DNA of 64,000 nt from a bacterium (Candidatus Blackallbacteria) CG13_big_fil_rev_8_21_14_2_50_49_14 (GTDB taxonomy: Bacteria > Cyanobacteriota > Sericytochromatia > UBA7694), in assembly GCA_002783405.1 (NCBI GenBank), contig PFGG01000035.1, positions 194,940 through 258,939 on the forward strand, written 5' to 3'. The notes beneath the pieces were generated by a model. That model searched no databases. It saw only the letters and a program-made list of their open reading frames with translations, and was not told the origin of the DNA. Below, piece after piece: positions 2,474-48,584 of the stretch; the stretch's first letter is position 1, and each line of letters starts with the position of its first letter. The position numbers were made by a program, and so were the translations under genes.

Positions 2474-2498
2474 GCCCCGGTCATCTCCGACCGGAAAC

Positions 2499-3227: not shown

Positions 3228-3242
3228 GATAGGTTATCCTTT

Positions 3243-4547: not shown

Positions 4548-4606
4548 TTGACCTGTATCAAAGGGTGTTTTTCAAGCTTATTTATACAATAAAGGGTGTT
4601 TATATT
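4548..4606 (+). promoter_or_regulatory. Candidate promoter/operator upstream of oxidase operon 1, with a direct repeat AAAGGGTGTTT at 4560..4570 and 4591..4601
   Basis: TTGACC at 4548..4553. The two 11-nt direct repeats are 31 bp apart and the second overlaps the TATATT at 4601..4606. The region lies in a 565-bp intergenic leader before coxB1. An AAGGA Shine-Dalgarno sits 10 nt before the ATG at 4742. Confidence 0.3.
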
Positions 4607-4741
4607 TTAAGGGAATTCTTAGTATCCAAAGGCGTACAGACATAATTCCCTCCGCCCAGGAATAATTACCTCATTTTTAATGGGCGAATCGATCTTTCCA
4701 AATCTTGTTTTCTAAATGTTTTTGAAAAGGAACTGACAGGG

Positions 4742-5821: not shown

Positions 5822-5838
5822 GGAGCAGCTGGTGAACT

Positions 5839-7554
5839 ATGGCCACTGAAGTAATCCAACACTCAGTATCTCCACATGAACATCATGAACTGAGTTTCTG
5901 GCGCAAATATATTTTTTCAACTGATCATAAAGTCATCGGCATGCAATACCTGCTCACAGGACTGCTGATGGTATTCTTGGGCGGATTTTTCGCCTATGTC
6001 TTTCGCATGCAATTGGCCTTTCCTGGTCAAGCCATTCCTGGCTTTGGAAAGTTAGACGCCAATACCTACAATATGCTGATTACCATGCACGGCACCATTA
6101 TGATCTTTTGGGTTGCCATGCCTGTTCTTGTTGCAGCTTTCGGAAACCTGCTGATTCCAACGATGATCGGCGCAGATGATATGGCGTTTCCAACCCTCAA
6201 CATGATTTCCTACTGGGTTTTCTTCATCAGTACAGTCGTGCTGATTCTATCGATGGTTTTACCTGGTCCCATGGCCACGGGGTGGACAGCCTATCCACCG
6301 CTTTCAGCCAATGCCTACCCCGCCAAAGTAGATTTTTGGGGAGGCATTGGTGGCAGTCTCTGGATTTTGGCTGTTGCGCTTGAGTTCATTGCCTTCCTGA
6401 TTGGGGGGATTAATTTCCTGGTAACAACCTTCAATATGCGGGCTCCAGGCATGAAACTAATGGATATGCCCATTACCGTCTGGATGATGGATATTGCAGT
6501 TCTGGTCTTCATGTTTTCAGTGGGCCCTCTGGTAGCGGGTGCTGTCATGTTGCTCTTTGACCGTGCTTTTGGAACAGGCTTCTATAACCCAGCGGCAGGG
6601 GGAGATCCGATTCTCTTCCAACACTTTTTCTGGTTCTTTGGGCATCCAGAAGTCTATGTCATTCTCTTACCAGGTTTGGGAATGGTGGCTGAGATACTGG
6701 CAACCATGTCGCGTAAACCTCTATTCGGCTATAAAGCCATTATCTATGCCTCAATCATTTCTGGCTTCCTTTCATTTATTGTTTGGGCTCACCACCAGTT
6801 CATTGCTGGTATCGATCCCCGCATGGCTGTCTTTTTCAGTATTACCACTATCATGATCTCAGTTCCCTTCGCTGTTTGGATGTTTGCCGCTATTGCAACC
6901 CTTTGGAAAGGATCGATCACCTTAAATACTCCCATGCTTTTCGCTTTGGGTTTTATTGGTGAGTTTTTGTTGGGCGGTGTAACAGGTATTTATCTGGGAG
7001 CCAGCGCCTTTGACATCTATGCACATGATAACTATTTTGTAGTTGCACATTTCCACTATGCCTTGATTCCCGATGTTTTCTTTGGTGGACTGGCTGCAAT
7101 TTATTTCTGGTATCCCAAATTCATCGGACGCATGTATAACGAAACGCTCGGTAAGATTCACTTTTGGCTTACAACGATTGGTTTCAATATGATCTTTCTG
7201 CCCTTATTTTACAATGGTTTCAAAGGTCAACACCGGCGTATTTTCGACTATTCAGCCTGGCCCAACCTCATGGCTCCAGACTTGGTTCAAAACCGTGTCA
7301 TTGCAACCATTGGGGTCATTATTTTAATTGCTGCTCAAATTCCATTTCTCATCAATATGATTCATAGTTTTCGTAAAGGCCCCAAAGCTGAACGAAATCC
7401 ATGGAAAGCCAACTCATTGGAATGGGCGACAGCATCCCCCCCTCCTCACGGTAATTTTGACACCTACCCCAATGTTTACCGTGGACCTTATGAATACAGC
7501 GTGCCTGGCCGTGAAGAAGATTTTTGGCCTCAGCACATTGCGAACGAAACATAG
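5839..7554 (+). CDS. ctaD: Cytochrome c oxidase subunit I
   Basis: 571 aa and 12 or more TM helices. Contains WFFGHPEVYVILLPGLGMV, HHQF and FVVAHFHY, the canonical heme-copper oxidase histidine ligands. Confidence 0.95.
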   Translation: MATEVIQHSVSPHEHHELSFWRKYIFSTDHKVIGMQYLLTGLLMVFLGGFFAYVFRMQLAFPGQAIPGFGKLDANTYNMLITMHGTIMIFWVAMPVLVAAFGNLLIPTMIGADDMAFPTLNMISYWVFFISTVVLILSMVLPGPMATGWTAYPPLSANAYPAKVDFWGGIGGSLWILAVALEFIAFLIGGINFLVTTFNMRAPGMKLMDMPITVWMMDIAVLVFMFSVGPLVAGAVMLLFDRAFGTGFYNPAAGGDPILFQHFFWFFGHPEVYVILLPGLGMVAEILATMSRKPLFGYKAIIYASIISGFLSFIVWAHHQFIAGIDPRMAVFFSITTIMISVPFAVWMFAAIATLWKGSITLNTPMLFALGFIGEFLLGGVTGIYLGASAFDIYAHDNYFVVAHFHYALIPDVFFGGLAAIYFWYPKFIGRMYNETLGKIHFWLTTIGFNMIFLPLFYNGFKGQHRRIFDYSAWPNLMAPDLVQNRVIATIGVIILIAAQIPFLINMIHSFRKGPKAERNPWKANSLEWATASPPPHGNFDTYPNVYRGPYEYSVPGREEDFWPQHIANET

Positions 7555-7568
7555 AGGAGATCAACTAT

Positions 7569-8183
7569 ATGTCAAGCACAGCTATTGCTCAGGAAGAGCA
7601 CGCTCAAGACACTTCTCCCCAAGCCAGAAGACGTGTTTTGATGGCAGATATGCCCAAAGGGCGATTGGCCATGTGGTGGCTCATCGCCTCTGAAGTCGTT
7701 ATCTTTGGAGGCTTAATTGCCACCTATATCATGTTCCGTTTACGCCATCCCGAATGGGGACACGCAGCCGCCCATACTTCCACACCCATGGGAGCATTGA
7801 ATACATTTTTTCTCCTGACCAGTAGTTTGACCATTGTATTGGCCCATGATGCCGCCAATCGCAAAGACCTCAAAGGAGCCGTGCGTAATATGCTGATTAC
7901 GCTTGGTTTTGGTTTGGGATTTTTGGTGGTCAAGTCTATTGAATACAGTACCGAAATCAGTCATGGCTTTACTCTCACGGCAGAACTTTTTTGGAGCTTT
8001 TATTTCCTAATGACAGGTTTACACGCACTCCACGTGATAGCAGGCATGACCACCATCTTCATTGTTATGCTGGGTGTGCGCAAAGGAAAAAACCTACAGA
8101 GAGTCGAGTTTGCTGGGCTCTATTGGCACTTGGTTGACTTGGTCTGGATTTTGCTTTTCCCTTTACTCTATATCGCGCATTAA
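7569..8183 (+). CDS. Cytochrome c oxidase subunit III
   Basis: GAGGAG Shine-Dalgarno 9 nt upstream of the ATG at 7569; the ORF-track start at 7524 overlaps ctaD. 5-TM protein ending ...GLYWHLVDLVWILLFPLLY, which is the subunit III signature. Confidence 0.85.
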   Translation: MSSTAIAQEEHAQDTSPQARRRVLMADMPKGRLAMWWLIASEVVIFGGLIATYIMFRLRHPEWGHAAAHTSTPMGALNTFFLLTSSLTIVLAHDAANRKDLKGAVRNMLITLGFGLGFLVVKSIEYSTEISHGFTLTAELFWSFYFLMTGLHALHVIAGMTTIFIVMLGVRKGKNLQRVEFAGLYWHLVDLVWILLFPLLYIAH

Positions 8184-8195
8184 GGAGGCTTCAAA

Positions 8196-8519
8196 ATGGC
8201 AATACACAACCCAACGGCCCATCATCCAGAAGAGGATTATCACGGCCATCCCAATTATTTTAAAACCTACTTTATCTTATTGACTATTTTTGGCCTCAGT
8301 TTGGCAGCAGGCTTTCTAGACAATATGCTCATGGCCATTCTGCTTATTTTTGGCATGGCCATAATAAAAATGATGTATGTTGCCAATAATTTCATGCATC
8401 TGCGTTTTGAGCCTGTTTCCGTTTGGTTTGCTGTTATTTTTGGTCTTGTTTGCTGTTTTATTTTCTATTTTGGTATTTACCCCGATATTATGATGGTACC
8501 TTTGGAAGTTGCTCGCTAA
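8196..8519 (+). CDS. Cytochrome c oxidase subunit IV (small caa3-type CoxD/CtaF-like membrane subunit)
   Basis: 107 aa with three hydrophobic helices. GGAGG Shine-Dalgarno upstream. The position directly after subunit III matches ctaF/coxD of caa3 operons. Confidence 0.6.
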   Translation: MAIHNPTAHHPEEDYHGHPNYFKTYFILLTIFGLSLAAGFLDNMLMAILLIFGMAIIKMMYVANNFMHLRFEPVSVWFAVIFGLVCCFIFYFGIYPDIMMVPLEVAR

Positions 8520-9137
8520 ATGCTCATCAATGAAAACATCCCCACTGCCCGAGCAATGCCGCGTCGTCCTTTGATCGCCAATAGCATTTTGGGTATGATC
8601 TTTTTTCTAGCCACAGAATTGATGTTGTTTGCTGCTTTTATCAGTGCCTATCTGGTGAATCGAACCAATGCCGGTTTTGCTTGGCCTCCTCCCGGTCAGC
8701 CCAGACTGCCCATCGAAGCCACCGCTTTGAACACTGCTTTTTTAATCGTAAGTGGAGTAAGCTTGCTCTGGGCTTGGTTCAGTTTAAGACAAAAAAAATC
8801 AGTCCAAAAATGGCTCTGGACAACCCTTTTAACAGGAAGTATTTTTGTCCTGCTTCAAGGCTTTGAATGGTTGCAATTGCTTCGTTTCGGACTCACAGTA
8901 TCTTCCAGTCTCTACGGTGCTTTTTTCTATCTGATCATTGGAGCACATGCACTCCATGCGATTGCAGGCTTGCTCTTTCTGTGGGCCAGTCTCAAGCAAT
9001 TTCAAAAAAAACCAGAATTGGTTAATCTGCCAAGACCCTTGCAATCTGCTCAATCACTTTTTCCTTCCGCAGCGCTTTTCTGGGGTTTTGTTGTTACTAT
9101 CTGGCCCGTAATTTATGGGTTTGTCTACCTGCTATGA
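8520..9137 (+). CDS. Extra subunit-III-like (NorE/CoxC-like) 4-5-TM membrane protein
   Basis: Its start overlaps the preceding stop. Contains ...GAFFYLIIGAHALHAIAGLLFLW..., which resembles the subunit III / NorE helix pair. It is shorter than a canonical subunit III. Confidence 0.5.
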   Translation: MLINENIPTARAMPRRPLIANSILGMIFFLATELMLFAAFISAYLVNRTNAGFAWPPPGQPRLPIEATALNTAFLIVSGVSLLWAWFSLRQKKSVQKWLWTTLLTGSIFVLLQGFEWLQLLRFGLTVSSSLYGAFFYLIIGAHALHAIAGLLFLWASLKQFQKKPELVNLPRPLQSAQSLFPSAALFWGFVVTIWPVIYGFVYLL

Positions 9138-9364
9138 ACACAAAAACTGCATTCTTCTGGATTTGCGCGATGCAATGGATTTTTCCCTGCTTTAGTTGGG
9201 GCTGTAATTGTATCTCTGACGGAGGAAGCAGTAAAAGTGCAGCCATGTATCAAGGCATTACCCTTTTACTGGCTGGGCTCCCGCTTTTATTTTGTTTGAG
9301 TTTATTCGGCCTTTATTACTGGCTCAAACGACAGGAACAATCCCCCGCATTGGAAACCCTGTGA
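9134..9364 (+). CDS. Small Cys-rich membrane protein (76 aa) of unknown function
   Basis: ATGA overlap with the upstream gene and GTGA overlap with the downstream Sco gene, implying translational coupling. N-terminal CAMQWIFPCFSWGCNC (four Cys) followed by one TM helix. Confidence 0.35.
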   Translation: MNTKTAFFWICAMQWIFPCFSWGCNCISDGGSSKSAAMYQGITLLLAGLPLLFCLSLFGLYYWLKRQEQSPALETL

Positions 9365-10047
9365 AACAGCCTCGTTCATTCATTCCATGGTTGCTGGGAT
9401 TCAGTCTCTTTCTCATTGGATTTCTTTTGACTTTTCTTTTCCAAAAACAATCCCCACAACTGGCCAGTCTACCTGTTTTAGGTCAGGTACATGATTTTCA
9501 TTTGCTGAACGAACAAGGGAAACCAATGACAGAGCAGGACCTCAAAGGTAAGGTTTGGGTTGCAGATTTCATTTTTTCAAGTTGCACTGAAGAATGCCCC
9601 CTCATGAATATCGAGATGTCTAAACTTCAAGAGGCTTTTAAGCAAAATGAGCAGGTCAAGCTACTCTCCTTCAGCGTTGATCCTGAAACAGATTCCCCAC
9701 AACGCCTGTTTGAATATGCCCAAAAATTTAAAGCAATACCCCAAAAATGGTCTTTCCTCACCGGAGATCGCGAGAGCTTAAGCCATTTGGCCCTTGAGGA
9801 TTTTCATATTTTGGGAGAGGCCTCAGTCAGCCATGCTCATTCTGAACATTCCCACAATAGGGAAGAACAATCCAATTCCCAAAACACCCATTCAGCATTG
9901 AGAAATCCAAGTATTTCCCAACCCTTTCTGCACAGCCAGCAATTTGTTCTTGTCGATCAAAAACTCCAGATTCGCGGGTATTACGACAGCAGAATGCCCA
10001 ATGATATCAACCGTCTGATTCAGACAGATCTGCCCTCCTTATTCTAA
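9361..10047 (+). CDS. SCO1/SenC family copper chaperone, paralogue 2
   Basis: The GTG at 9361 is overlapped by the stop of the small upstream ORF; the in-frame ATG at 9292 is the ORF-track alternative. N-terminal TM anchor and CxxxC (FSSCTEECPLM). A His-rich insert SHAHSEHSHNREE precedes FLHSQQFVLVD. Confidence 0.8.
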   Translation: MKQPRSFIPWLLGFSLFLIGFLLTFLFQKQSPQLASLPVLGQVHDFHLLNEQGKPMTEQDLKGKVWVADFIFSSCTEECPLMNIEMSKLQEAFKQNEQVKLLSFSVDPETDSPQRLFEYAQKFKAIPQKWSFLTGDRESLSHLALEDFHILGEASVSHAHSEHSHNREEQSNSQNTHSALRNPSISQPFLHSQQFVLVDQKLQIRGYYDSRMPNDINRLIQTDLPSLF

Positions 10048-10073
10048 GCCTCCCCTCCTCAGCCAAATCTGTA

Positions 10074-10108
10074 AAAGCCTGATTCGTTTTCAGGCTTCAA
10101 TTTTTGTT
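10074..10108 (+). terminator. Rho-independent terminator after oxidase operon 1
   Basis: Perfect 8-bp stem AAGCCTGA / TCAGGCTT with loop TTCGTT, followed by CAATTTTTGTT. Confidence 0.5.
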
Positions 10109-10385
10109 AAAAATCGCAACACTGCATCCCATATTCCCTGGAATAGCTTCAAGTACAAATACAGTGCCATTTTAGTGCCAAAATTATTGATCTTTATCAA
10201 AACTAGTTTTGACTTCTGTCATTGTGAATAAACCACTTAATATTCTTACGAACAGGGTTATTATGTTAGAGTGATATAAAAATTTCGTCTGAGTGCTGGT
10301 TCTGTTCATAGGGTTTCAGTCAGGGGTATTTCCTGCAAAATGAACAAACACTAAGCACCAACTTTTAAAAGACCGAGGATAAACC

Positions 10386-11423
10386 GTGAAAGCACAATCG
10401 ACAAGCATTTTACGCCTCATCTTGATGATGGGGAGTTTCTTGCTGATGTATCCTTTGAATGCACTGGCGCTGATGGATGCCCAGTCAACTTTTGATGTCA
10501 AAGGAACCATTGGCCAGGAGCAACTGACTGTTTTCTGGTTCACGGTAGGAGTGTCTGCCTTCCTGCTGCTGACCGTAGGTGGCGTCTTTTTCTACGCCCT
10601 TTTCCGTTTTCGTGCCAAACCGGGCCAGGACTTTGCTGTCCCTGAACAAACCCATGGAAGCGCAAAAGTAGAAATTGCACTGATTATTGCCTCCTGTTTA
10701 TTACTGCTGGTAATTGCAGTGCCCAACGCCAAAGCGTTGTTTGTGATGGACAAGCCCCCCGAAGATAAACCGGCCATGAAGGTCATCGCGATCGGGCACC
10801 AATGGTGGTGGGAATTCCAATACCCTGACCTGGGGATTACAACAGCCAACGAATTGCATATTCCAACCAATACAGCTGTTAAAGTTGATATTAAAGCCGT
10901 AGATGTTATTCACAGCTTTTGGGTTCCACGTCTGGCGGGCAAAATGGATGCCGTTCCGGGTCAAATCAACCAGATGTGGTTAGATGCCAAAGAGCCCGGA
11001 AAATACAACGGACAATGTACTGAGTTTTGTGGAGACTCCCACGCTCAAATGCGTTTTTTGGTATTTGCACATGACAAGGCCGATTTTGACAAGTGGACAA
11101 AATCAGAAAAAGCCGATGCAGCAAAGCCTGATACCGTTGCACAGGTCAATGGCGAAAAAGTCTTTATGCAAGGCTGTAATTCCTGCCATGCCATTAAGGG
11201 AACCAACGCCATGGGCATTATCGGCCCCAACCTGACCCATTTTGGCAGTCGTACAAGCCTGGGTGCTGTTATGTATGAGAACAATACAGATAACCTGAAA
11301 AATTGGATCAAATTCCCTCAGCAAATGAAGCCTGGTAACCTAATGAAACTGGAACAGGCCAATATTGTACTGAGTGACAGAGATCTTGCAGATCTTGTAG
11401 CCTATCTGCAAAATCTGAAATAG
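10386..11423 (+). CDS. coxB: Cytochrome c oxidase subunit II with a C-terminal cytochrome c domain, second copy
   Basis: Signal/TM N-terminus. CuA motif H..CTEFCGDSHAQM. C-terminal CxxCH (CNSCHAIKG). It is a paralogue of the 4742..5821 gene. Confidence 0.9.
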   Translation: MKAQSTSILRLILMMGSFLLMYPLNALALMDAQSTFDVKGTIGQEQLTVFWFTVGVSAFLLLTVGGVFFYALFRFRAKPGQDFAVPEQTHGSAKVEIALIIASCLLLLVIAVPNAKALFVMDKPPEDKPAMKVIAIGHQWWWEFQYPDLGITTANELHIPTNTAVKVDIKAVDVIHSFWVPRLAGKMDAVPGQINQMWLDAKEPGKYNGQCTEFCGDSHAQMRFLVFAHDKADFDKWTKSEKADAAKPDTVAQVNGEKVFMQGCNSCHAIKGTNAMGIIGPNLTHFGSRTSLGAVMYENNTDNLKNWIKFPQQMKPGNLMKLEQANIVLSDRDLADLVAYLQNLK

Positions 11424-11458
11424 CCCATCGTGATTGAATATAGACAAGAGAGGAAAAT

Positions 11459-13378
11459 ATGGCAACAAGTACGGAAGTAATCAGTACAGGAGGTCATGCG
11501 CATACCCATTCCGATGCTCCGGAGATGGGCATGTTGGGGCCTCGCCCTTCTGCAAAGACGGGCGTCTGGAGCTGGTTAACGACGACCGACCATAAACGCA
11601 TTGGCGTCATGTATGGCATCAGCGCCCTGTTGTTTTTGGTTCTGGGTGGTCTTGAAGCTCTGATGGTCCGCATTCAGTTGGCCGTCCCCAATAATGACAT
11701 GTTGGTTGGCGATATGTTCAACCAAATGTTCACCATGCATGGCACAACCATGATCTTTTTGGCGGTCATGCCTTTGATCGCCGCCTTTTTTAATTTCGTA
11801 GTCCCCCTTCAAATTGGCGCACGTGACGTAGCCTTTCCCCGACTGAATGCTTTCAGTCTCTGGGTTTTTGTGGCTGGGGCGGTTTTAATCAATGTCAGTT
11901 GGTTTGCCGGTGGCGCTCCCAATGGTGCTTGGGTAGGTTATCCTCCCATTACAGGCCCTCAATACAATCCTGGCCATAACTCAGATTTCTGGGTCATGGG
12001 CTTGATGCTTTTAGGGGTAGCCTCTGTAGCCGCATCGCTTAACTTTTTCACCACGATTATCAATATGCGGGCTCCAGGCCTGACGCTGATGCGCATGCCT
12101 GTTTTTGTCTGGATGACCTTGGTGACCAATGTTTTGATCCTGCTGGCATTCCCTCCCATTACCATTGCCTTGGCGCAGTTGATGATGGATCGTATGTTTG
12201 GCGCCAATTTCTTCAATGTCGCCAAAGGTGGCATGCCCATTATGTGGCAACACTGGTTCTGGGTCTTTGGACACCCTGAAGTCTATATTCTGATTCTGCC
12301 TGGTATGGGAATTGTGTCTGAAATTCTTCCGACCTTTTCGCGCAAACCTTTGTTTGGTTATCCCCTGATTGTTTTCTCTGGTGCCTTTATCGGCTTTATG
12401 GGATTTACAGTCTGGAGCCACCATATGTTTACCTCTGGTATGGGCGTGATTGCCGTTTTGGCCTTCTCTGTCACTACCTCTATTATCGCGGTGCCAACCG
12501 GTGTCAAAATCTTTAACTGGATTGGTACCATGTGGGGCGGAAATCTACGCATGACCACCCCCATGCTCTATGCGCTTTCATTTATTGCCATGTTCACCGT
12601 GGGCGGCTTCAGCGGCATTATGCACTCCGCCGCCGCCGCAGATATGCAACAACACGATACCTATTTCATCGTTGCACATTTCCACTATGTCTTAATCGGT
12701 GGCGCCATTTCAGCTTTGTTTGGCGGTATCGCTTACTGGTTCCCCAAAATTACAGGCCGATTGATGGATGAGAAACTGGGTAAATTTGCCTTTTGGGTCT
12801 TCCTGATCGGTTTTAATATGACCTTTTTCCCAATGCATATCCTGGGCTTGAATGGAATGCCACGTCGTATTTACACCTACCATGCAGATATGGGCTGGAA
12901 TTTCTGGAACCTGTTCTGTACTGTGGGAGCCTTCGTACTGGCTTTCGGCATTCTCTTTTTCTTCATCAATATGGTTCACTCTTTCCGCAATGGAGAAATT
13001 GCAGGCGACGATCCCTGGGATGGCCGTACACTGGAATGGAGCATTCCGTCTCCCCCTCCCGTTTACAATTTTGCCGTAATTCCTGAAGTCACCCATTTGG
13101 ATGATTTTTGGCATAAAAAACAAACAGGCAAAGCCAATATTCCTTGGGATGGCAAGTTGATTCACATGCCCCTGTCTTCTTACTACCCTCTGATTGTGGG
13201 AGTTGGAATGTTCATCTTTGGCATGGGCATGATTTATATCAAAGACTCTGTCATGTTTGCTCTTCCCGTGGCATTAGGTGGTTTCGGTCTGATGACCTTT
13301 GCCATCTTCGGATGGGCACTTGAAGGACCCGGCGGTGAAATGCTGGACCCAACAAAAGAAAGTGGGGCACATAACTAA
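11459..13378 (+). CDS. ctaD: Cytochrome c oxidase subunit I, second copy, with a C-terminal extension carrying extra TM helices
   Basis: 639 aa. Contains WFWVFGHPEVYILILPGMGIV, HHMF and FIVAHFHY. About 70 extra C-terminal residues carry two hydrophobic segments. Confidence 0.95.
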   Translation: MATSTEVISTGGHAHTHSDAPEMGMLGPRPSAKTGVWSWLTTTDHKRIGVMYGISALLFLVLGGLEALMVRIQLAVPNNDMLVGDMFNQMFTMHGTTMIFLAVMPLIAAFFNFVVPLQIGARDVAFPRLNAFSLWVFVAGAVLINVSWFAGGAPNGAWVGYPPITGPQYNPGHNSDFWVMGLMLLGVASVAASLNFFTTIINMRAPGLTLMRMPVFVWMTLVTNVLILLAFPPITIALAQLMMDRMFGANFFNVAKGGMPIMWQHWFWVFGHPEVYILILPGMGIVSEILPTFSRKPLFGYPLIVFSGAFIGFMGFTVWSHHMFTSGMGVIAVLAFSVTTSIIAVPTGVKIFNWIGTMWGGNLRMTTPMLYALSFIAMFTVGGFSGIMHSAAAADMQQHDTYFIVAHFHYVLIGGAISALFGGIAYWFPKITGRLMDEKLGKFAFWVFLIGFNMTFFPMHILGLNGMPRRIYTYHADMGWNFWNLFCTVGAFVLAFGILFFFINMVHSFRNGEIAGDDPWDGRTLEWSIPSPPPVYNFAVIPEVTHLDDFWHKKQTGKANIPWDGKLIHMPLSSYYPLIVGVGMFIFGMGMIYIKDSVMFALPVALGGFGLMTFAIFGWALEGPGGEMLDPTKESGAHN

Positions 13379-14013
13379 TGAGCCACGCAGCAACTGTGGA
13401 TCAACAGCACCCCCATGCAGAACATCATCATGAGGAGCATTCCTATACGGGAATCCCCAATAAAAAAGTGATGATGTGGGCCTTTCTGGCCTCTGATTGC
13501 ATGTTTTTCGGTACGCTGATTTCTACCTATATCATTTACCATGGAAAGAGTCTCGCAGGTCCTTATCCTGCAGAGGTTCTGAATATCCCGGTGACGACAG
13601 CCAGTTCATTTGTGCTGCTGATGAGCAGTTTGCTCATGGCACTCAGTGTGGCAGCTATCAATCGCCAGGATATCACCAAATTCCGGCTGTGGATTTTCCT
13701 GACCGGTGTGTTTGGCGCGATCTTTCTTGGTTTCCAGTCCTATGAATTCACTGAATTCGTATCCAGAGGCGTCACACTACAGAACAATTTGTTTGGTTCA
13801 ACCTTCTATACCATGACTGGAACCCACGGTTTACACGTTGCCATTGGTGTTTTCTGGCTATTTAGCTGGTTCATCTACTCTTTCTTTGGCAATATGAAAG
13901 ACAAAGCCACCGATATTGAGGTTGCAGGCCTGTATTGGCACTTCGTTGATATTGTCTGGATTGTCATCTTTACCGTGATTTACCTTGTGGAATTTGTAGG
14001 AGTGACGAGCTAA
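13378..14013 (+). CDS. Cytochrome c oxidase subunit III, second copy
   Basis: ATGA overlap with ctaD2. 211 aa ending ...GLYWHFVDIVWIVIFTVIYL, the subunit III signature. Confidence 0.85.
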   Translation: MSHAATVDQQHPHAEHHHEEHSYTGIPNKKVMMWAFLASDCMFFGTLISTYIIYHGKSLAGPYPAEVLNIPVTTASSFVLLMSSLLMALSVAAINRQDITKFRLWIFLTGVFGAIFLGFQSYEFTEFVSRGVTLQNNLFGSTFYTMTGTHGLHVAIGVFWLFSWFIYSFFGNMKDKATDIEVAGLYWHFVDIVWIVIFTVIYLVEFVGVTS

Positions 14014-14657
14014 TGAGCAACGCACATGCAGAACACCCCGATCATGTCCCTGTCTATGTCAAACTGGCAGCCGCCTTGGGGATTGTAACCGCAGCAGAGG
14101 TTGGAATTCTCTACGTGGCTCTGCCTCACGCATTGATGTATGTGGGTCTTTATTTACTCGCTGCACTTAAATTCGGATTTGTTGTCGCAGTTTTTATGCA
14201 CCTCAAATACGATAATAAGTTGTTGACAGGTATTTTCTTCAGTGGATTCACTATCGCACTGGCAACCATGGTCGCGATGATTTCGCTGATCAACTACCAA
14301 CCCAGCAAAACTTCTATACATGTCAAAAATTCAAAAGAATTAGCGGCATTGAGTGCGTCTGGCAATGCAGAAAACGGGCCTGCTGTTTTTAAGGCAAAAG
14401 GCTGTACCGCTTGTCATTCCATCAGCAGTGTAGATGGTGCGATAGGTCAGGCCGGCCCCAAATTGGATGGCTTGGGCGAACGTGCAAAAACACGTGTCGC
14501 AGGTAAGGATGCAGTGGCTTATATTAAAGAATCCATTGAAAATCCCGCTGCCTTTGTTGTTGAAGGATTTCCGGCAGGTTTAATGCCAGCAAATCTGAAG
14601 CAAACAATGAGTGATCAGGAGTACAGCGATTTGGTCGCCTTCTTGGCCAAGTTATAA
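14013..14657 (+). CDS. Cytochrome c oxidase subunit IV (caa3 CoxD-like) fused to a C-terminal mono-heme cytochrome c domain
   Basis: ATGA overlap with subunit III. The N-terminal ~100 aa form 3 TM helices comparable to the 8196..8519 product. The C-terminal ~90 aa carry CTACH and are paralogous to the C-terminus of the 15623..16228 cytochrome c (shared ...FKAKGC..CH.IS....GA.G..GPKLDGLG....TRV.GKDAV.YIKESIENP..FVVEGFP...). Confidence 0.7.
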   Translation: MSNAHAEHPDHVPVYVKLAAALGIVTAAEVGILYVALPHALMYVGLYLLAALKFGFVVAVFMHLKYDNKLLTGIFFSGFTIALATMVAMISLINYQPSKTSIHVKNSKELAALSASGNAENGPAVFKAKGCTACHSISSVDGAIGQAGPKLDGLGERAKTRVAGKDAVAYIKESIENPAAFVVEGFPAGLMPANLKQTMSDQEYSDLVAFLAKL

Positions 14658-14660
14658 ACA

Positions 14661-15554
14661 ATGCTGAACTTTTTGTGTCCCCCGGCTCTGGCCCATGAAT
14701 TTGAAGCCATACCTTCTGTAGATATTCCTGCAAACGTATGGTGGACATGGCGACTGGAGTGGGGGGCACTTCTCATTTTGGCTTTGGCCGGTTGGGGCTA
14801 TTATCAGCTCTGGCAATACGCCAAAAACCAGTTAAAACTGGAAACGGCCCAAAAACTCGATAAGAAAAAAGCTGCTTATTTTTTCTCAGGTCTGGCCTTG
14901 ATCTATATAGCCATCGCCTCTCCAATCGACAGTGTCGGCGAGCAATATTTATTCAGTGTACATATGTTTCAACACAATCTCTTTATGTACCCTGTGGCCA
15001 CACTGCTTTTGATAGGCATTCCCGAGTGGATGCTTCAAATTGTGTTTAGATATTGGCCTTGGTCAGAAACAGTCCTTAAAAAATTAGCTCACCCCATACC
15101 CGCTTGTCTGCTTTTCAACCTGATTTTCGGGGTCTGGCATGTCCCCTATCTGTATGATTGGGCACTCAAAGACCGTATGGTGCATAACCTGGAGCATCTG
15201 ACTTTTGTTCTCAGTGCGCTCCTGATGTGGATGCCTGTGCGCAGTCCCCTTCTAAACTTGCGGCTAAGTCATGGGTTTCAAATGCTTTATATCGGTGCGC
15301 TTACTATCGCTCAAATTCCTGTTTTTGCCTTTGTCACTTTCTCACGAACCGTTCTTTACCAAACCTATGAGCTCGCCCCCCGCTTAACCACATTGACGGC
15401 ACGTGGAGACCAACAATTAGGGGGCGTACTCATGAAACTGACAGGAATGTTGGTTTTCAGCATTGCATTTATTCTGATCTTTATGGCCTGGTACCGCGCC
15501 GATAAAGATCAGGAAAACAATCCACAACTCAAGACCCGACCGCATTTCAATTGA
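14661..15554 (+). CDS. Cytochrome oxidase assembly factor, Bacillus CtaG-like (Caa3_CtaG family) polytopic membrane protein
   Basis: 297 aa with about 7 TM helices. Contains SVHMFQHNLFMYP, a His pair in a helix as in CtaG-type assembly factors. It lies inside the oxidase operon. The assignment was made by eye and was not verified by search. Confidence 0.55.
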   Translation: MLNFLCPPALAHEFEAIPSVDIPANVWWTWRLEWGALLILALAGWGYYQLWQYAKNQLKLETAQKLDKKKAAYFFSGLALIYIAIASPIDSVGEQYLFSVHMFQHNLFMYPVATLLLIGIPEWMLQIVFRYWPWSETVLKKLAHPIPACLLFNLIFGVWHVPYLYDWALKDRMVHNLEHLTFVLSALLMWMPVRSPLLNLRLSHGFQMLYIGALTIAQIPVFAFVTFSRTVLYQTYELAPRLTTLTARGDQQLGGVLMKLTGMLVFSIAFILIFMAWYRADKDQENNPQLKTRPHFN

Positions 15555-15622
15555 TTCAGGTACAATGAAAGCAAACAAATGATAAAACAAGATTTATCAA
15601 AATACGAGAAAGGTAACTCACT

Positions 15623-16228
15623 ATGAAACCCGCAGATCAAATGAAAGTTGTCGCTCTTTCATTTTTTTCATTGGCCATTTTGATCGCCATGATTACCACT
15701 GTTTCCATCATTACAAACCAGGCTGTTTCCGGCCACGGTGGAGAACATGGTACAGAAGCTCATCAAAGCAGCAACAATGAAAGCACAGCCGAACAAGCCG
15801 CCCCCAAAACTGAAGAACATGCAGCGCCTAAAACTGAAGAACATGCAACAGCCACAAAGGAACAAGCTGCCCCAAAGACTGAAGAGCACGCAGCGCCTAA
15901 AACTGAAGAACACAAAGAAACAAAACTTGCTGTTGCAGGAGATGCAAAAGCAGGGGCTGAAGTTTTCAAAGCTAAAACCTGCTCAACTTGCCACACGATC
16001 AGCTCATTGGCTGGTGCCACGGGAGCTGTAGGGCCTAAACTGGATGGTTTGGGCAAAACAGCTGCCACCCGTGTCACAGGCAAAGATGCTGTAACCTATA
16101 TTAAAGAATCCATTGAAAACCCAACTACTTTTGTCGTAGAAGGATTCCCTCCTGCCATGCCGGCTTTGAAAGCAACCATGAATGAGAAAGAATTTGAAGA
16201 TCTGGTTGCTTACCTCGTAAGCCTTTAA
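15623..16228 (+). CDS. Membrane-anchored mono-heme cytochrome c (class I) with a repetitive Ala/Pro/Lys/Glu linker
   Basis: N-terminal TM anchor, a low-complexity linker containing EQAAPKTEEHAAPKTEEH twice, and a C-terminal CSTCH haem-binding domain. Confidence 0.8.
   Translation: MKPADQMKVVALSFFSLAILIAMITTVSIITNQAVSGHGGEHGTEAHQSSNNESTAEQAAPKTEEHAAPKTEEHATATKEQAAPKTEEHAAPKTEEHKETKLAVAGDAKAGAEVFKAKTCSTCHTISSLAGATGAVGPKLDGLGKTAATRVTGKDAVTYIKESIENPTTFVVEGFPPAMPALKATMNEKEFEDLVAYLVSL
15791..15928 (+). repeat. In-frame tandem duplication (2 x 69 nt, with nested 24-nt sub-repeats) inside the cytochrome c linker
   Basis: The unit gaacaagc[c/t]gcccc...gaagaacatgca recurs at 15791 and 15860, encoding EQAAPKTEEHAAPKTEEH twice. 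It is not a CRISPR: there are no spacers and it is coding. Confidence 0.7.
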
Positions 16229-16707
16229 TGCGGTAAAAATTCACGCAATTTTTGTTGCGCCACACATTGATGAGCCACAACTTGAAGTTGTGGCTTATTT
16301 GTTTTGCCTTCAAAGTCAGCGATACATTTAAGCAGCGCAACAGACCAGGGAGAAAATTCCTTGGGGCTCCGAATCCGCTCAAGAAAAACACCCTGTTGGC
16401 GCATAGTGACCAAATACTCTTGGGTCACACTCTGACGCAACTGATAAGGGCTCTGTTGCCATCCCAACCAATCCATGTTTGCAAAGGAAACAGGCGCCTT
16501 GCTTACTTCAGGTACAGAAGGCTCCTCTGAGCGCCGCTCAGACACCTGAAGCGGAAAGATCCACTGGATCGAAACAGCCTGAAACCCCAAAACCAAGGAA
16601 AAGAAAAGGCCCTGAAGTCGTTTTTCAAAGGATTGGATTTGAAAGATACTCCACAAAAAAAGAAAAACTGCCAAACCACTTAAAAGGGCCGGCAGAAATT
16701 CAGACAT
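16225..16707 (-). CDS. Hypothetical membrane protein (160 aa)
   Basis: Two N-terminal hydrophobic helices and no recognisable motif. It lies downstream of the flagellar hook/rod-like gene on the same strand. Confidence 0.4.
   Translation of the reverse strand: MSEFLPALLSGLAVFLFLWSIFQIQSFEKRLQGLFFSLVLGFQAVSIQWIFPLQVSERRSEEPSVPEVSKAPVSFANMDWLGWQQSPYQLRQSVTQEYLVTMRQQGVFLERIRSPKEFSPWSVALLKCIADFEGKTNKPQLQVVAHQCVAQQKLREFLPH
16273..16305. terminator. Palindromic hairpin at the convergent junction of the cytochrome c gene and the minus-strand 16225..16707 gene
   Basis: AGCCACAACT tgaa AGTTGTGGCT is a perfect 10-bp stem, followed by TATTTGTTTT on the plus strand. It overlaps the 3' coding end of the minus-strand ORF, where it encodes PQLQVV. 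Confidence 0.4.
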
Positions 16708-16712
16708 GCTTT

Positions 16713-17711
16713 TTATCTAAAAACGCTGTTTAAATCATCCCAGGCAGACAAAAATGCTTTCATGGCTGCTGTTGTGGAGGTAAAGGTACGCTGTAACATC
16801 CCCAAAAGCCCCATGCTGCTGGGTAACTCAGTATTGGATTGCTCCAATGTTTGGCTTTCAATCGACCCCAAGCCCAACTGCTTATCACCAGGTGCACCCA
16901 CACCAGGAATACCACCAGGTGCAGCAGCGTCTGTTGCTTTATAAACAATGCCACCAAAACGAGAATTGGATAAGCCCTGAAGATTGGGAAATATTGCCAG
17001 AGCCAATTGATTGCCTTTACGCAAACCACGGGTTTCATTGATCAAAAACCCATCACGATCAAAATCTATCTGATCCCCATTGATTCCCAAATTATGTTGA
17101 AAAAACGTATTTCCACCCTGGGTATACTCTGTCGTATAATCGGAAACACGCAGAGAAGCCAATTCAGCAGTCACATTTGCCAAAGGTTCAGACAAAGCAG
17201 TAGAAATTTGGGCAGCTGTTTGGGCCCCTCCAGATTTTAATTGATCCAGGATTTTTTGCCCCAAAGCTGAAACCACAGGATTGATTTCAACTGTCGTTTT
17301 TTCCAAGGCTCCTGTTTGTGGATCAAAACTGGCAACACTTAAACCATCACTGTTGACCAGTGTTCCTGTATTATCAAAGTGAAACTCACCATTGCGGGTA
17401 TAATAAAACTCACCCTTCGCGTCAAAAAGGATAAAAAAACCACGACCATTGATCGCGAGATCAGTCGTAAAACCTGTTCTTTGAAGTGCACCCTGACCAA
17501 AATCAGATGTTGTGGCCCCCAAAGCAGTTCCTGCTCCTGAAGCCTGCCTTCCATTGCCAAAATCAATCACATCCAGTCCAGTTAAAGTACCACGAACTTC
17601 TTTCGCGCCGGGAATCTGGCTACGGGTCAAATTAGACGCTTCAATATTCATTAGCTGATTTGTGGCCCGTAAGGCTTCACGAATCCCTGTCATCCCACCA
17701 CTACTCGTCAT
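16713..17711 (-). CDS. Flagellar hook / basal-body rod family protein (FlgE/FlgF/FlgG family)
   Basis: Conserved N-terminal helix region (MTGIREALRATNQLMNIEASNLTRSQIPGAKE), the central GFFILFDAKGEFYYTRNGEFHFDNTGTLVNSDG motif, and the C-terminal LEQSNTELPSSMGLLGMLQRTF helix typical of this family. GGAGG Shine-Dalgarno 9 nt upstream. Confidence 0.8.
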   Translation of the reverse strand: MTSSGGMTGIREALRATNQLMNIEASNLTRSQIPGAKEVRGTLTGLDVIDFGNGRQASGAGTALGATTSDFGQGALQRTGFTTDLAINGRGFFILFDAKGEFYYTRNGEFHFDNTGTLVNSDGLSVASFDPQTGALEKTTVEINPVVSALGQKILDQLKSGGAQTAAQISTALSEPLANVTAELASLRVSDYTTEYTQGGNTFFQHNLGINGDQIDFDRDGFLINETRGLRKGNQLALAIFPNLQGLSNSRFGGIVYKATDAAAPGGIPGVGAPGDKQLGLGSIESQTLEQSNTELPSSMGLLGMLQRTFTSTTAAMKAFLSAWDDLNSVFR

Positions 17712-17753: not shown

Positions 17754-17761
17754 TTATCGGC
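17754..17761 (-). promoter_or_regulatory. Sigma-28 (FliA)-like -10 element GCCGATAA upstream of the hook/rod gene
   Basis: The minus strand reads ...ttgatcttcaaaGCCGATAAggaaac..., an 8/8 match to the enterobacterial FliA -10 consensus. It lies about 43 nt upstream of the ATG. The -35 match is poor. Confidence 0.35.
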
Positions 17762-17860: not shown

Positions 17861-17890
17861 ATTAAAAAATCCCTCCGCCAGGGGAGGGAT
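17861..17890 (-). terminator. Rho-independent terminator after the 17911..18225 gene
   Basis: Perfect 8-bp G/C-rich stem ATCCCTCC / GGAGGGAT with loop GCCAGG. On the minus strand it is followed by TTTTTTAAT. Confidence 0.5.
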
Positions 17891-17910: not shown

Positions 17911-18225
17911 TTATTTTGAGAAAAGCCAATCCCAAAAATTTTGTTTCTTTTGCTTTTCTTTTTCTTTTTTCTTTTTCTTTTTTTCTTTTTTAAGCTGTTG
18001 TCGAGACTTTTCAAGTTCTGCATTTGGCAGAATGGTCGTCAAGGCATTGTATTGATCTTTCGCTGACAAGAGCATGCCATCTTTGCCATAAGGGGTTTGG
18101 TGAATAACCTGTTCCAGCGCTGGGGTCACTTTCAGATTGGTACTGTCTTTGGATACGGTCTGCCCCAGTTGCTTGGCAACTTCTGATTTCATGGGCCCAG
18201 AATCTGAAATTGGGATGATTGACAT
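17911..18225 (-). CDS. Hypothetical protein (104 aa) with a Lys-rich C-terminus
   Basis: No recognisable domain. The C-terminal KKEKKKKKKEKEKQKKQ is encoded by the (CTTTT)n-like tract. Followed by a terminator hairpin. Confidence 0.4.
   Translation of the reverse strand: MSIIPISDSGPMKSEVAKQLGQTVSKDSTNLKVTPALEQVIHQTPYGKDGMLLSAKDQYNALTTILPNAELEKSRQQLKKEKKKKKKEKEKQKKQNFWDWLFSK
17944..17991. repeat. Pyrimidine simple-sequence tract (CTTTT/CTTTTT-like repeats) inside the 3' end of the 104-aa gene
   Basis: The plus strand reads tttcttttgcttttctttttcttttttctttttctttttttctttttt. Confidence 0.7.
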
Positions 18226-18269
18226 GTCTAAGTTTACCCCTCGCTACAGGTTAGATAATACCGGCTTGA

Positions 18270-18680
18270 TTACCGACTGTGCGTCTGAATCGCATCAAGC
18301 AATTTAATAATATTCGTAGACCAATAAGGATCTCGTTTCAGATCCTGCATCACATGATTGACCAGACGCTGATTTGAGGCTATTTTCTCAGGAAGTTCTT
18401 TGCGGAGAATTTCCTTAACCACAACAGGGAAAACGACATCTCTTTCAGAATTGTCATAACCATCCCTGGTAAAATTATAATTGAATTCGCGATCTTTTTC
18501 ACCCGATTTTCTCAAAATAAAAGAGAGAGAAATATCTCCCTCTTTTAGATATACTGAATATCTCTTTAAAATTTCGGTGACTTGCTGTACAACAGCAGAT
18601 TTGCCTGCGTCAAGGTCAATAACGATTGGATTCTCTTTTGCACTCACCCCAGGCAACCCTCTAGGCGGCAAACATTTCAT
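18270..18680 (-). CDS. Hypothetical protein (136 aa; start uncertain)
   Basis: Overlaps the upstream gene by 20 nt in another frame; an alternative GTG lies 11 codons in. No motif recognised. Confidence 0.4.
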   Translation of the reverse strand: MKCLPPRGLPGVSAKENPIVIDLDAGKSAVVQQVTEILKRYSVYLKEGDISLSFILRKSGEKDREFNYNFTRDGYDNSERDVVFPVVVKEILRKELPEKIASNQRLVNHVMQDLKRDPYWSTNIIKLLDAIQTHSR

Positions 18681-19026
18681 CGACCAACTGACGGGCCATT
18701 TCAGACAGCGTCATCGCATCACGCTGTTCTTTTGTCATTTGAGCGGCGGCTCCTTTAAGTGCACTGACGGCAACAGTGGCAGGCAATGAGGCGCTTCCAC
18801 CCAAACTAACTTGTGTAGCTGCACCACCGGCAGCGCCTACGACAGAACTGATACTGAGGGAATCTTCATTTTTAGCTGTTGAAGGCTTGGCTGATGCCCC
18901 TTGAACACCACTGCTGGGAGCAGCGCTGGCACCGGCACTGGCTTTCTGGGTACGGCCAGACTTAACGGAAAAATCGAATCCGCTATTGCCATTTAATCTA
19001 TTGATGCTGCTCATATTTTCCTCCAC
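18661..19026 (-). CDS. Hypothetical protein (121 aa) with a Ser/Ala/Gly-rich disordered N-terminus and a short C-terminal helix
   Basis: Strong GGAGGAAAAT-ATG ribosome-binding site. Ends ...MTKEQRDAMTLSEMARQLVDEMFAA. Confidence 0.45.
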   Translation of the reverse strand: MEENMSSINRLNGNSGFDFSVKSGRTQKASAGASAAPSSGVQGASAKPSTAKNEDSLSISSVVGAAGGAATQVSLGGSASLPATVAVSALKGAAAQMTKEQRDAMTLSEMARQLVDEMFAA

Positions 19027-19280
19027 ACGATATGTCTAAACTTGTATTTATCTAACTTAGCTTTTGAAATTTTATGTAGTTAATTTCAGGTTAAGATTGT
19101 TAATCTTTACATAATATCTATAGCCTGCCCGCCAAAAAACTTGCTGAGCAAAACGATCTTTTAATCTTGTTTTTGAAGAAATCCTTTATTTTAATCTACA
19201 TATAATATTTTTAACAATAGCTCAAAGTGAGTCGAGACAAGCGATTGAGCACGATTCAGGAAGACTTCAGCTCTCAAAAG

Positions 19281-19286
19281 TATAAT
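19281..19286 (+). promoter_or_regulatory. TATAAT -10 box upstream of the 19360 gene
   Basis: TATAAT lies about 75 nt upstream of the ATG. AAAGGA Shine-Dalgarno sits 9 nt before the ATG. The -35 is weak. Confidence 0.3.
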
Positions 19287-19359
19287 TTTCAAATTCTTGC
19301 ATAAAGATCCCCAATTTTGGGTACAAGATCACAAACAGGATCATAAAGGATCAAGAGCC

Positions 19360-20031
19360 ATGAAAATTGAGTCATCTGTACAAAAATCACATTATTCAGG
19401 CCAGCCTCTTTCAAGTTCTGTTGGCAGCTCCTCCCCCGATCTTTCAAATACAAAAACCCAAGCGGAAACCTCCTCAAACACCCCCTCCGATGCCGCAGAA
19501 ACACTGGGCAACGACAGTACGGAAATCAACCATCAAACGGCAGCCCACCAAAGCCCTCCCAATCAGGTCTCTTTTGATACACAGCCCTCAGATCCCCCTG
19601 CACCGCAGGAGCCCCATGAGACACAAAACCAAGGAGCTGACTGGGAATCTACTATCTCTGGAAATACCCAGGACATTGAAAAAATTCAAGAGTTCATTCA
19701 CGAAATAGAAAATAAGAATATCCAAAGCCTCTTAGACGGTCTTCAGGAATCTCTGGATCGTGCCAGAAAGCAGATGGAAGACAGTATGCGTCACTATTAT
19801 GAGAAAGAAAGACCGCGCTTGGACAGCATGAAAGAAAAACTCAACGAGGCCAAGGCTACCGAAGCAGCAAACAAAACCAGTGATACGCTTAAGAATATTT
19901 CTCAAGTAGCAGGTATGATTGCAGATATGCAACGTGATCTTTCAAGCTCAGGCCTTCCACCTGAGCAACGGAATGCGATTCAGGCCAGTTTAGTTCAGGC
20001 CCAAAAACTTACTGAAATGCGCGCTCACTAA
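19360..20031 (+). CDS. Hypothetical protein with a Ser/Thr/Gln/Pro-rich disordered N-terminal half and a predicted coiled-coil C-terminal half
   Basis: ATG at 19360 with a good Shine-Dalgarno; the ORF-track start at 19297 is a TTG. No enzymatic motif. Confidence 0.45.
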   Translation: MKIESSVQKSHYSGQPLSSSVGSSSPDLSNTKTQAETSSNTPSDAAETLGNDSTEINHQTAAHQSPPNQVSFDTQPSDPPAPQEPHETQNQGADWESTISGNTQDIEKIQEFIHEIENKNIQSLLDGLQESLDRARKQMEDSMRHYYEKERPRLDSMKEKLNEAKATEAANKTSDTLKNISQVAGMIADMQRDLSSSGLPPEQRNAIQASLVQAQKLTEMRAH

Positions 20032-20953
20032 AACGAATCCACGCCAAGCCATCTACATTCTGGCCATTTAAATAAAAACCCCAATGTAAATGTGGACCTG
20101 TTGATCGCCCTGTACTGCCAATATAGCCAATGGTCTGTCCCTTGCTGACCCTATCCCCCTCTTTGACGGCCAGTTTGCTGAAGTGAATATAAACAGAAGT
20201 AATCCCCTGTCCATGATCTAAAAAGACAAGATTGCCATTGGAATTGTATTTTGAAAAATAGCGGGCCAAAGCCACACGCGCTCCCCCCGGAGCTTTGACG
20301 GGATAGCCCATGGGTGAGGCAAAATCAACACCTGAATGATAGCCATTGTATTTACCGTTTAAATAACGACGGGTACCAAAGGCAGCACTGACACGGTGGG
20401 GCACAGGCAAAACAAAAGGCCCATTCCAAAAAGCCTGCTCTGTTCGCAAATCCTTAACAGCATCCACCCATTTGTCTTCTTCAGCCACTTGTTTTTGTTG
20501 CTCAGGTTTCAGCGGAGGGCTTACAAAGCGAATATATTGCGAATAAAAACTACCAGGCTTGACTTCAAGATGCTCTTTCAACGCCCTATGACCTTCTTCA
20601 TCTTTGACAGACAAAGTGTATCCCCCAGGTTTCAAATCTGCTTTTACAGACAAAAATGTCCGAAAACGATGATGGGACTTATTCGGAATGGGTCCTTGAT
20701 CATAAAAAGGAATTTTTTGCCCCAGACCTTCAAGCGTATACTGCACGCCTTCGCGCCAAGGGGCTTCAAGCTCAAGCGCGCACAGTTGTCCTTGAACAAC
20801 TTGATCCGAGCTCAGTTTCAAAACGGGTGCATCAAAAACTTCCTCTAAAGGCTTATCTGTAGGGCTGGCTGAAACAGGTGCGTTGCTCTGCGCAAAACCA
20901 GCGCTCTGAAACCAGAAAGCCAAGCCGAGAAAAATGAAGATAGAGCGCATCAT
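20009..20953 (-). CDS. M23 family metallopeptidase (LytM-type), secreted
   Basis: Signal peptide. HSGVDFASPMGYPVKAP...HLHWG carries the HxxxD and HxH zinc ligands of the M23 fold. Confidence 0.8.
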   Translation of the reverse strand: MMRSIFIFLGLAFWFQSAGFAQSNAPVSASPTDKPLEEVFDAPVLKLSSDQVVQGQLCALELEAPWREGVQYTLEGLGQKIPFYDQGPIPNKSHHRFRTFLSVKADLKPGGYTLSVKDEEGHRALKEHLEVKPGSFYSQYIRFVSPPLKPEQQKQVAEEDKWVDAVKDLRTEQAFWNGPFVLPVPHRVSAAFGTRRYLNGKYNGYHSGVDFASPMGYPVKAPGGARVALARYFSKYNSNGNLVFLDHGQGITSVYIHFSKLAVKEGDRVSKGQTIGYIGSTGRSTGPHLHWGFYLNGQNVDGLAWIRFSERAFQ

Positions 20954-46232: not shown

Positions 46233-46302
46233 CAGTAATAATTCCTCAAAGCAAAACAGGTGGGATCTTGAATAAAGACCTCACCTGTTTAACAAAATTT
46301 AT

Positions 46303-47112: not shown

Positions 47113-47129
47113 GCTTCTTTACCTGCCTG

Positions 47130-48209: not shown

Positions 48210-48229
48210 GGTGTTATCCCCTTAAAAAT

Positions 48230-48565: not shown

Positions 48566-48584
48566 ATAATTAACCAGATTTCCG

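Follow-up and report, generated by a model that had tools for sequence, protein, structure and literature searches.

A three-gene operon of orphan proteins found in Sericytochromatia, and its possible link to late flagellar gene control

What do three small genes do that lie side by side next to a flagellar hook-family gene and encode proteins of no recognised family? The question is raised by a stretch of 64,000 nucleotides (the window; contig PFGG01000035.1, positions 194,940 to 258,939) from Candidatus Blackallbacteria, which belongs to the class Sericytochromatia, the non-photosynthetic relatives of cyanobacteria. An original prediction from the DNA letters had grouped the three genes with a divergent fourth one and suggested that they might be lineage-specific flagellar regulators or secretion substrates. 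We found that the three genes, here called A, B and C, form a single transcription unit that recurs in every Sericytochromatia locus recovered and that is preceded by an invariant promoter-like motif. These three always-linked, class-restricted orphan families together with their motif are what is new here. Tentatively, we assign the unit to the late flagellar and chemotaxis regulon. Sericytochromatia are uncultured, and literature searches on flagella or motility in Sericytochromatia or Blackallbacteria yielded no statement on this subject.

The cassette and its immediate surroundings comprise the following features, given in window coordinates:

18661 to 19014, minus strand: gene A, 117 amino acids, ATG start at 19014 behind the ribosome-binding site GGAGG
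18270 to 18647, minus strand: gene B, 125 amino acids, GTG start (predicted) at 18645-18647
17911 to 18225, minus strand: gene C, 104 amino acids
19360 to 20031, plus strand: gene D, 223 amino acids, divergent, ATG start at 19360 with the same start in the orthologues
19119 to 19144, minus strand: invariant promoter-like motif GCAAGTTT-N11-GGCTATA(G), upstream of A
19015 to 19118, minus strand: 5' leader of the A-B-C operon, about 100 nt, AT-rich
17869 to 17890, minus strand: intrinsic terminator of the A-B-C unit, an 8-bp GC-rich stem followed by TTTTTT

All four open reading frames lie where the original prediction had placed them and all are genuine genes, but the overlaps described among A, B and C are an artefact of calling the longest open reading frame. 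Gene A, first described as 121 amino acids long, has 117 when read from the ATG at 19014; its ribosome-binding site, low complexity and short C-terminal helix were described correctly, and the 117-residue sequence is identical to COW36_00755, a hypothetical protein deposited for Candidatus Blackallbacteria CG17. For B, a reading frame of 136 codons overlapping A had been proposed. Since the homologues of B have 122-131 amino acids and their alignment begins only at residue 11-12 of this long frame, translation almost certainly starts at the internal GTG, as judged from the comparison of sequences. With this start, A and B are separated by 13 nt; B and C are 44 nt apart, so that none of the three genes overlaps another. 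The lysine-rich tail of C and the terminator behind it are both present as predicted.

Terminator hairpins with T-runs are found at the equivalent position in five related loci as well (L001-L005; loci used for comparison carry the prefix L), with sequences that differ from the one in the window. A-B-C is thus a single transcription unit, which this intrinsic terminator separates from the hook-family gene that follows. The leader contains the pentamer TTAAC three times at a spacing of 10-11 nt (GATTAAC-N-CTTAACC-N-ATTAAC, window 19040-19100, minus strand). This pattern is kept in the clade of the window, and TTAA-rich periodic repeats are also seen in distant loci; the repeats could be a putative protein-binding site. 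A comparison of the leader with Rfam returned no family, and RNAalifold returned no consensus structure for it.

The orthologues in L001 served as the reference for estimating selection. Synonymous differences are saturated in all four genes, with a proportion of synonymous differences (pS) of 0.63-0.74 (0.625 for A). The proportion of nonsynonymous differences (pN) is 0.148 for A, 0.063 for B, 0.048 for C and 0.439 for D, compared with 0.148 for the hook-family gene and 0.087 for the beta subunit of methylcrotonyl-CoA carboxylase. All four genes are under purifying selection, and A, B and C are among the most conserved genes of their neighbourhood.

Gene D, which had been counted as part of the block, is a separate, fast-evolving and clade-specific protein outside of the conserved cassette. 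Its orthologues occur only in L001-L005, with 29-39% identity; in L021, L022, L024, L026, L027 and L030, the region upstream of the cassette lacks D. The N-terminal half is indeed rich in serine, threonine and glutamine (65% S/T/Q/A/G/P/N) and appears disordered, and the C-terminal half is helical; the coiled coil proposed for this half is reflected only in weak matches below threshold, for the most part to regions of long helix or coiled coil, including those in PADLOC and PHROGs. No Pfam or NCBIfam family was found for D at E ≤ 1, and its scores against the FlgM profile described below are negative. The possibility that D is a paralogue of the S/Q-rich reading frame at 48615-49730 was rejected upon comparison. 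An M23 peptidase gene (window 20009-20953) converges on D, and the 3' ends of the two genes overlap by 23 nt; the nearest NCBIfam model of this peptidase is the Helicobacter cell-shape peptidase Pgp3 (1.5e-41, below the cut-off). In L027 and L031, too, genes for M23 peptidases are found within a few kb of the cassette.

Relatives of the cassette were gathered in four ways, namely by tblastn on the loci, by an exhaustive HMMER search with B, by a profile search with C and by a metagenome scan. The cassette is present in every Sericytochromatia locus recovered and occupies about 12 distinct genomic contexts. Wherever a locus continues beyond B, as 20 of them do, C follows immediately 3' of B, and a low-complexity A-like gene coding for 109-127 amino acids lies 5' of B wherever the contig reaches far enough. 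Loci annotated later display the identical three-gene layout. Every relative of the cassette proteins that bears an organism name is from Sericytochromatia, and the five genomic loci nearest to the window all stem from metagenome-assembled genomes of Sericytochromatia or Blackallbacteria. B has 14 representatives among 1.84 billion clustered proteins. The C family comprises 62 clusters, none of them with a Pfam domain, and all its named matches are again from Sericytochromatia.

The order of the three genes is constant and the surroundings vary from one group of loci to the next:

Window and L001-L005: hook-family gene downstream of the cassette
L021 (a genome of 5.18 Mb): five tandem Maf genes divergently upstream, HAD phosphatase gene downstream
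L022 and L023: cheW 24 nt downstream, cheB nearby
L018: aminotransferase gene adjoining, then a chemoreceptor gene as second neighbour
L030: Lon protease gene upstream, HAD phosphatase gene overlapping C
L027, L031, L009 and L020: S8 protease and glycosyltransferase genes
L024 and L025, L026, L014, L015, L017, and L006: unrelated housekeeping genes

The adjoining gene is therefore a motility gene in three of the approximately 12 contexts (hook-family gene, the five Maf genes, cheW), and a chemoreceptor gene is close by in a fourth. By a rough estimate, the probability of at least three adjoining motility genes arising by chance is about 0.01. The cheW gene of L022 and L023 is probably co-transcribed with the cassette. 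Linkage to the hook gene is confined to the single clade of the window and L001-L005, and most other contexts have unrelated neighbours.

Two of these neighbourhoods deserve a short description of their own. The five Maf genes of L021 (positions 1-8988) are tandem paralogues composed of Maf_flag10_N and MptE-like domains, and downstream of the cassette this locus encodes a GmhB-like HAD phosphatase, a protein of 2348 amino acids and glycosyltransferases. Maf proteins are flagellin glycosylation factors in other bacteria, and the region looks like a flagellin or surface glycosylation island. Furthermore, a gene of 62-66 codons was called divergently upstream of the cassette in L022 and L026, and the same conserved sequence is present in L018; by eye, its product begins with M-I-K-I-T-K-G-N-P.

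The most constant element outside of the coding regions is the promoter-like motif. We scanned 336 kb on both strands and found GCAAGTTT-N12-14-CTATA 21 times, always upstream of A and once per locus, at a distance of 79-123 nt from the start of A in 21 of 21 loci. When 12 divergent upstream regions were aligned, AGCAAGTTTT and CTATA were the only long invariant blocks, and their distance was fixed. The general form can be written as GCAAGTTT-N11-nnCTATA or GCAAGTTT-N11-(GC)CTATA(G/A/T), or else as GCAAGTTT-N11-GGCTATAG. The consensus for sigma-28 (FliA) of E. coli is TAAAGTTT-N11-GCCGATAA (PMC2859248). The cassette motif agrees with it in 6 of 8 positions of the -35 block, in the 11-nt spacer, which is identical, and, within the clade of the window, in 5-6 of 8 positions of the -10 block. 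This resemblance suggests that the cassette promoter may be of the sigma-28 type.

Two further sites of the window bear on this assignment. The region upstream of the hook-family gene has, at the aligned position, the -10-like octamer GCCGATAA in the window, AACGATAT in L003 and CGCTATAT or AACTATAT in L001, L004 and L002. CGATA and CTATA thus appear to be interchangeable in this lineage, and since the hook-family site swaps both forms among close relatives, the CTATA of the cassette is plausibly the same element as CGATA. Moreover, the element GCAAATCC-N10-ACCGATGT (window 48600-48625, minus strand) is located 59 nt upstream of the start of flbD in front of the genes flbD-motA-motB. It has a GCAA start, as in the -35-like block of the cassette, and a CGAT -10-like core, which makes it a candidate for a further promoter of this class. 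Because of the swap at the hook-family gene and of this element, we regard the parallel to sigma-28 promoters as more than cosmetic.

The octamer GCCGATAA is over-represented in the window, with 8 copies compared with 1.5 expected from shuffled sequences (11218, 12387, 15498, 17754, 47956, 49813, 55206 and 57650). A promoter position is clear for just one copy, at 17754-17761, which precedes the start codon of the hook-family gene by 43 nt; several of the others are intragenic. A weaker copy of the cassette motif, GCAAGTAC-N12-TCCTATAA, was noticed in L022 (region 12780-14258), 67 nt upstream of two adjacent genes for Gly/Ala-rich predicted membrane proteins of 250 and 203 amino acids beside cheB; the two proteins have no Pfam match, and this motif copy is uninformative. 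A crude regular expression for a sigma-factor gene gave no match in the window.

The window itself encodes further flagellar parts and other genes that are referred to here:

16713 to 17711, minus strand: hook/rod family gene, 332 amino acids (TIGR03506 1.8e-30; PF22692, D1 domain, 1.1e-13)
16225 to 16707, minus strand: predicted membrane protein of 160 amino acids, starting 5 nt after the hook-family gene
44227 to 45657: FapA (Pfam)
46303 to 47112, minus strand: motB (Pfam)
47130 to 48209, minus strand: motA (Pfam), an unusually long reading frame of 359 amino acids
about 48230 to 48565, minus strand: flbD (Pfam)
48615 to 49730, plus strand: S/Q-rich reading frame of 371 amino acids, no family assigned
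49731 to 50096, plus strand: CheY-like receiver (by eye), directly after the S/Q-rich frame

The hook-family gene belongs to the FlgE/FlgF/FlgG family, with 106.9 bits for TIGR03506 (cut-off 70.25) and 51.5 bits for PF22692 (cut-off 27). This bears out the flagellar neighbour of the original prediction at the level of the family, but the score stays below every FlgE equivalog cut-off, the best being 87.7 bits where 400 are required. Among the sequences of the Protein Data Bank (PDB), FlgE is its best match (4e-12), ahead of FlgG (2e-7), and the similarities suggest that it is probably the hook gene flgE. It has a promoter region of its own, predicted from the octamer at 17754-17761. The second motility region (44227-50096) is about 27 kb away from the cassette; together, the hook-family gene and the genes for FlbD, MotA, MotB, FapA and the CheY-like protein indicate that the organism encodes flagellar parts scattered along its chromosome. 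The 160-residue protein has two hydrophobic N-terminal segments by eye and no family match in Pfam, NCBIfam, PADLOC or PHROGs. It evolves fast, being 33-35% identical in L001-L004, where the hook-family protein is 80% identical. Directly beside the hook-family gene lies a region (3243-16228) in which, by eye, two separate gene sets for haem-copper oxidases seem to be present (about 4742-9137 and 10386-14657), together with two SCO-like genes, a haem O synthase-like gene, a CtaG-like gene and two cytochrome c fusion proteins.

What kind of proteins are encoded by the cassette? The composition of A (75% A/G/S/P/Q/E/K/R/T/N, 21% hydrophobic or aromatic residues) suggests that it is probably intrinsically disordered. 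Its size and composition are those of a disordered export substrate, and the length of 109-127 amino acids in all loci agrees, together with the composition, with a small disordered protein like FlgM. Moreover, A contains a D/E-x-(V/L)-x-(I/L)-S motif in the middle of the protein and a short amphipathic helix at the C-terminus. A has no match in Pfam or NCBIfam at E ≤ 1, a Pfam search with 14 members of the A family at E ≤ 10 found noise only, and neither the A profile nor the L021 variant alone matched any PDB sequence.

For a direct comparison, we built a FlgM profile from six sequences, namely the annotated genes of E. coli and Ralstonia, two further FlgM sequences and two PDB chains that the profile itself had recovered. 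The profile is valid, as it detects 9wsf_B (5e-8) and 1rp3_B (4e-3). Among the four proteins of the locus, only A has a positive score with this profile (8.5 bits), and 4 of 14 A-like proteins exceed the 99th percentile of shuffled controls. The probability assigned by hhalign to the pair of A and FlgM profiles is 0.5%. The C-terminal sigma-28-binding motif I-x-x-G-x-Y-x-V-D-x-x-x-I-A is absent from the alignments of the A family to the hidden Markov model (HMM) of FlgM; by eye, the variants of L014 and L021 alone resemble it (Y-D-G-N-V-C-V/I), which is not significant. Membership of A in the FlgM family (PF04316) was therefore rejected on the basis of HMM, hhalign, shuffled and leave-one-out controls, and FlgM is kept as an architectural analogy. 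The other similarities considered in the original prediction fared no better, as HMM searches with FlgM, FlgN, FliS, FliT, FlaG and the rod-binding domain of FlgJ gave no match.

B is the only clearly globular protein of the cassette. The positions F-P, E-x-L and D-P-Y-W-S are invariant in it or almost so, and its structural model contains beta strands and has no significant match to any solved structure, chaperone folds included. C carries the conserved linear motifs P-Y-G-x-D-G-M and I-L-P-N-A-E, followed by a polylysine helix and the aromatic tail N-F-W-x-W-L-F. The AlphaFold2 (AF2) model of C is confident only in the polylysine helix (residues 69-103). The invariant linear motifs and the aromatic tail suggest that C takes up its fold, or docks, on a partner or on an anionic surface. 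The tail has a low helical hydrophobic moment (about 0.2) and therefore does not qualify as a classical amphipathic helix. No relative of B or C was found in Pfam or NCBIfam (E ≤ 1), among the flagellar families (E ≤ 10, searched with both protein families) or among all PDB sequences (searched with the profiles).

We tentatively propose that A-B-C is a lineage-specific operon of the late flagellar and chemotaxis regulon, because of the sigma-28-like invariant motif, the recurrent motility neighbours, the probable co-transcription with cheW in one clade and the FlgM-like architecture of A. That A alone scores positively with the FlgM profile and that B and C are more conserved than a nearby housekeeping enzyme, the methylcrotonyl-CoA carboxylase beta subunit, were also counted in favour of this proposal. 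The operon, in the order promoter, leader of about 100 nt, A, B, C and terminator, would be an autonomous unit specific to Sericytochromatia, and a promoter of the sigma-28 (FliA) type would place it in the late regulon. Disordered and similar to FlgM in architecture, A would act as a regulator, as a substrate of flagellar export, or as both. B would be its folded cytoplasmic partner, and C, a basic protein, would attach through its polylysine helix and aromatic tail to an anionic surface, either the inner leaflet of the membrane or a partner protein. The general idea of lineage-specific flagellar genes in the original prediction thus fits the motif, the motility neighbours and the flagellar genes of the window, which are circumstantial, but its specific family leads fail. 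A bolder version, which we consider unlikely, is that the cassette is an unrecognised three-protein checkpoint or regulatory system of late flagellar assembly, unique to Sericytochromatia, that does the job of the FlgM/sigma-28 partner switch with unrelated proteins. It would consist of an exportable disordered regulator (A), a folded partner (B) and a membrane-docked protein (C), driven by a variant sigma-28 promoter.

Several observations weigh against the flagellar proposal. Its main rival, a serious possibility, is that the cassette is a non-flagellar module of Sericytochromatia that serves, for instance, cell differentiation, the response to stress or the biogenesis of envelope or glycans. 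A dedicated alternative sigma factor or activator would then read GCAAGTTT...CTATA, and chance would account for the motility neighbours. Most neighbourhoods are devoid of motility genes (L024, L026, L027/L031, L014, L015, L017, L006 and L030), and glycosyltransferases, a HAD/GmhB-like phosphatase, an S8 protease and M23 peptidases recur near the cassette. The exact motif occurs upstream of no second gene in the 336 kb and nowhere else in the window, so that no regulon is demonstrated. Its -10 core is CTATA and not CGATA, T replacing the G of CGA. Neither by HMM nor by profile-profile or fold comparison do A, B or C show homology to any flagellar family. Finally, the exhaustive search with B gave only a dozen full-length relatives of approximately 125 amino acids, and as the named relatives of the cassette are all from Sericytochromatia, flagella in general are independent of it. 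Three findings speak against a non-flagellar module: the motif resembles the sigma-28 consensus in its spacer as well as in its two elements, the promoter of the hook-family gene swaps CGATA and CTATA at one position, and motility genes adjoin the cassette in three of about 12 contexts, including the probably co-transcribed cheW.

It is much less probable that A is a true but extremely divergent FlgM, with B and/or C being divergent chaperones of the FlgN type and the cassette a flgM-flgN operon. This would agree with the place of A as first gene behind a sigma-28-like promoter-like motif, with its length of about 110-125 amino acids and its disorder, and with the M-x-x-I-N-R-type N-terminus and the x-V-x-L-S motif in mid-protein that A and FlgM have in common. 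Moreover, FlgM is hard to detect, as the FlgM of E. coli alone fails to find that of Aquifex among the PDB sequences. However, true FlgM proteins that were left out of the profile, including the one from Aquifex, score 26-41 bits, whereas the A-like proteins score between -0.1 and 10.7 bits. The FlgM HMM aligns only with the disordered part of A and the short x-V-x-L-S motif and not with the sigma-28-binding helices of the C-terminal region. These two results also count against the flagellar proposal itself. The hhalign result and the beta strands in the model of B, which matches no solved structure significantly, speak against a divergent flgM-flgN pair as well. The varying genomic position of the cassette would also be explained if it were mobile or selfish, for example a toxin-antitoxin system, a defence system or a prophage remnant, but this is very improbable. 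A, B and C have no match in PADLOC or PHROGs (anti-phage defence and phage proteins), and in none of the annotated loci was an integrase or transposase called beside the cassette. Each locus has a single copy, the window contains no paralogue, purifying selection on B and C is very strong, and the named relatives all belong to a single bacterial class.

The assignment to the late flagellar regulon would make the cassette a handle for asking whether late flagellar gene control in this class uses non-homologous parts. The motif likewise offers a handle for defining the regulon of an alternative sigma factor in Sericytochromatia by scanning complete genomes. The three orphan families provide an annotation for genes that are now called hypothetical in every genome, and even should the flagellar link prove wrong, the cassette would serve as a clean marker operon for the class.

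Three known systems are useful for comparison. Polybasic C-terminal tails target peripheral membrane proteins to membranes, and C likewise ends in a run of lysines followed by the hydrophobic aromatic sequence N-F-W-x-W-L-F. However, the tail of C does not appear to be a classical amphipathic helix and could equally dock into a partner protein. The class 3 promoters read by sigma-28 (FliA/SigD/WhiG) differ from the cassette motif in that its -35 block starts with GC and not with TA, in addition to the deviating -10 core discussed above; both have two blocks with an 11-nt spacer and a -35 block with AAGTTT, and the -10 block of the cassette has C-x-ATA, plus the preceding GC in the clade of the window. 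The third system is FlgM and the late flgM-flgN operon. The cassette differs from it in having three genes and named relatives from one class only, B and C match no known chaperone family or solved fold, and A shows neither a significant HMM nor a profile-profile match, the C-terminal helices that bind sigma-28 being unaligned. Although A is thus not a demonstrable member of the family, it resembles FlgM in its predicted architecture: a small, probably disordered protein, encoded first in its operon behind a sigma-28-like promoter-like motif, with an M-x-x-I-N-R-like N-terminus, an x-V-x-L-S motif in the middle and an amphipathic helix at the C-terminus.

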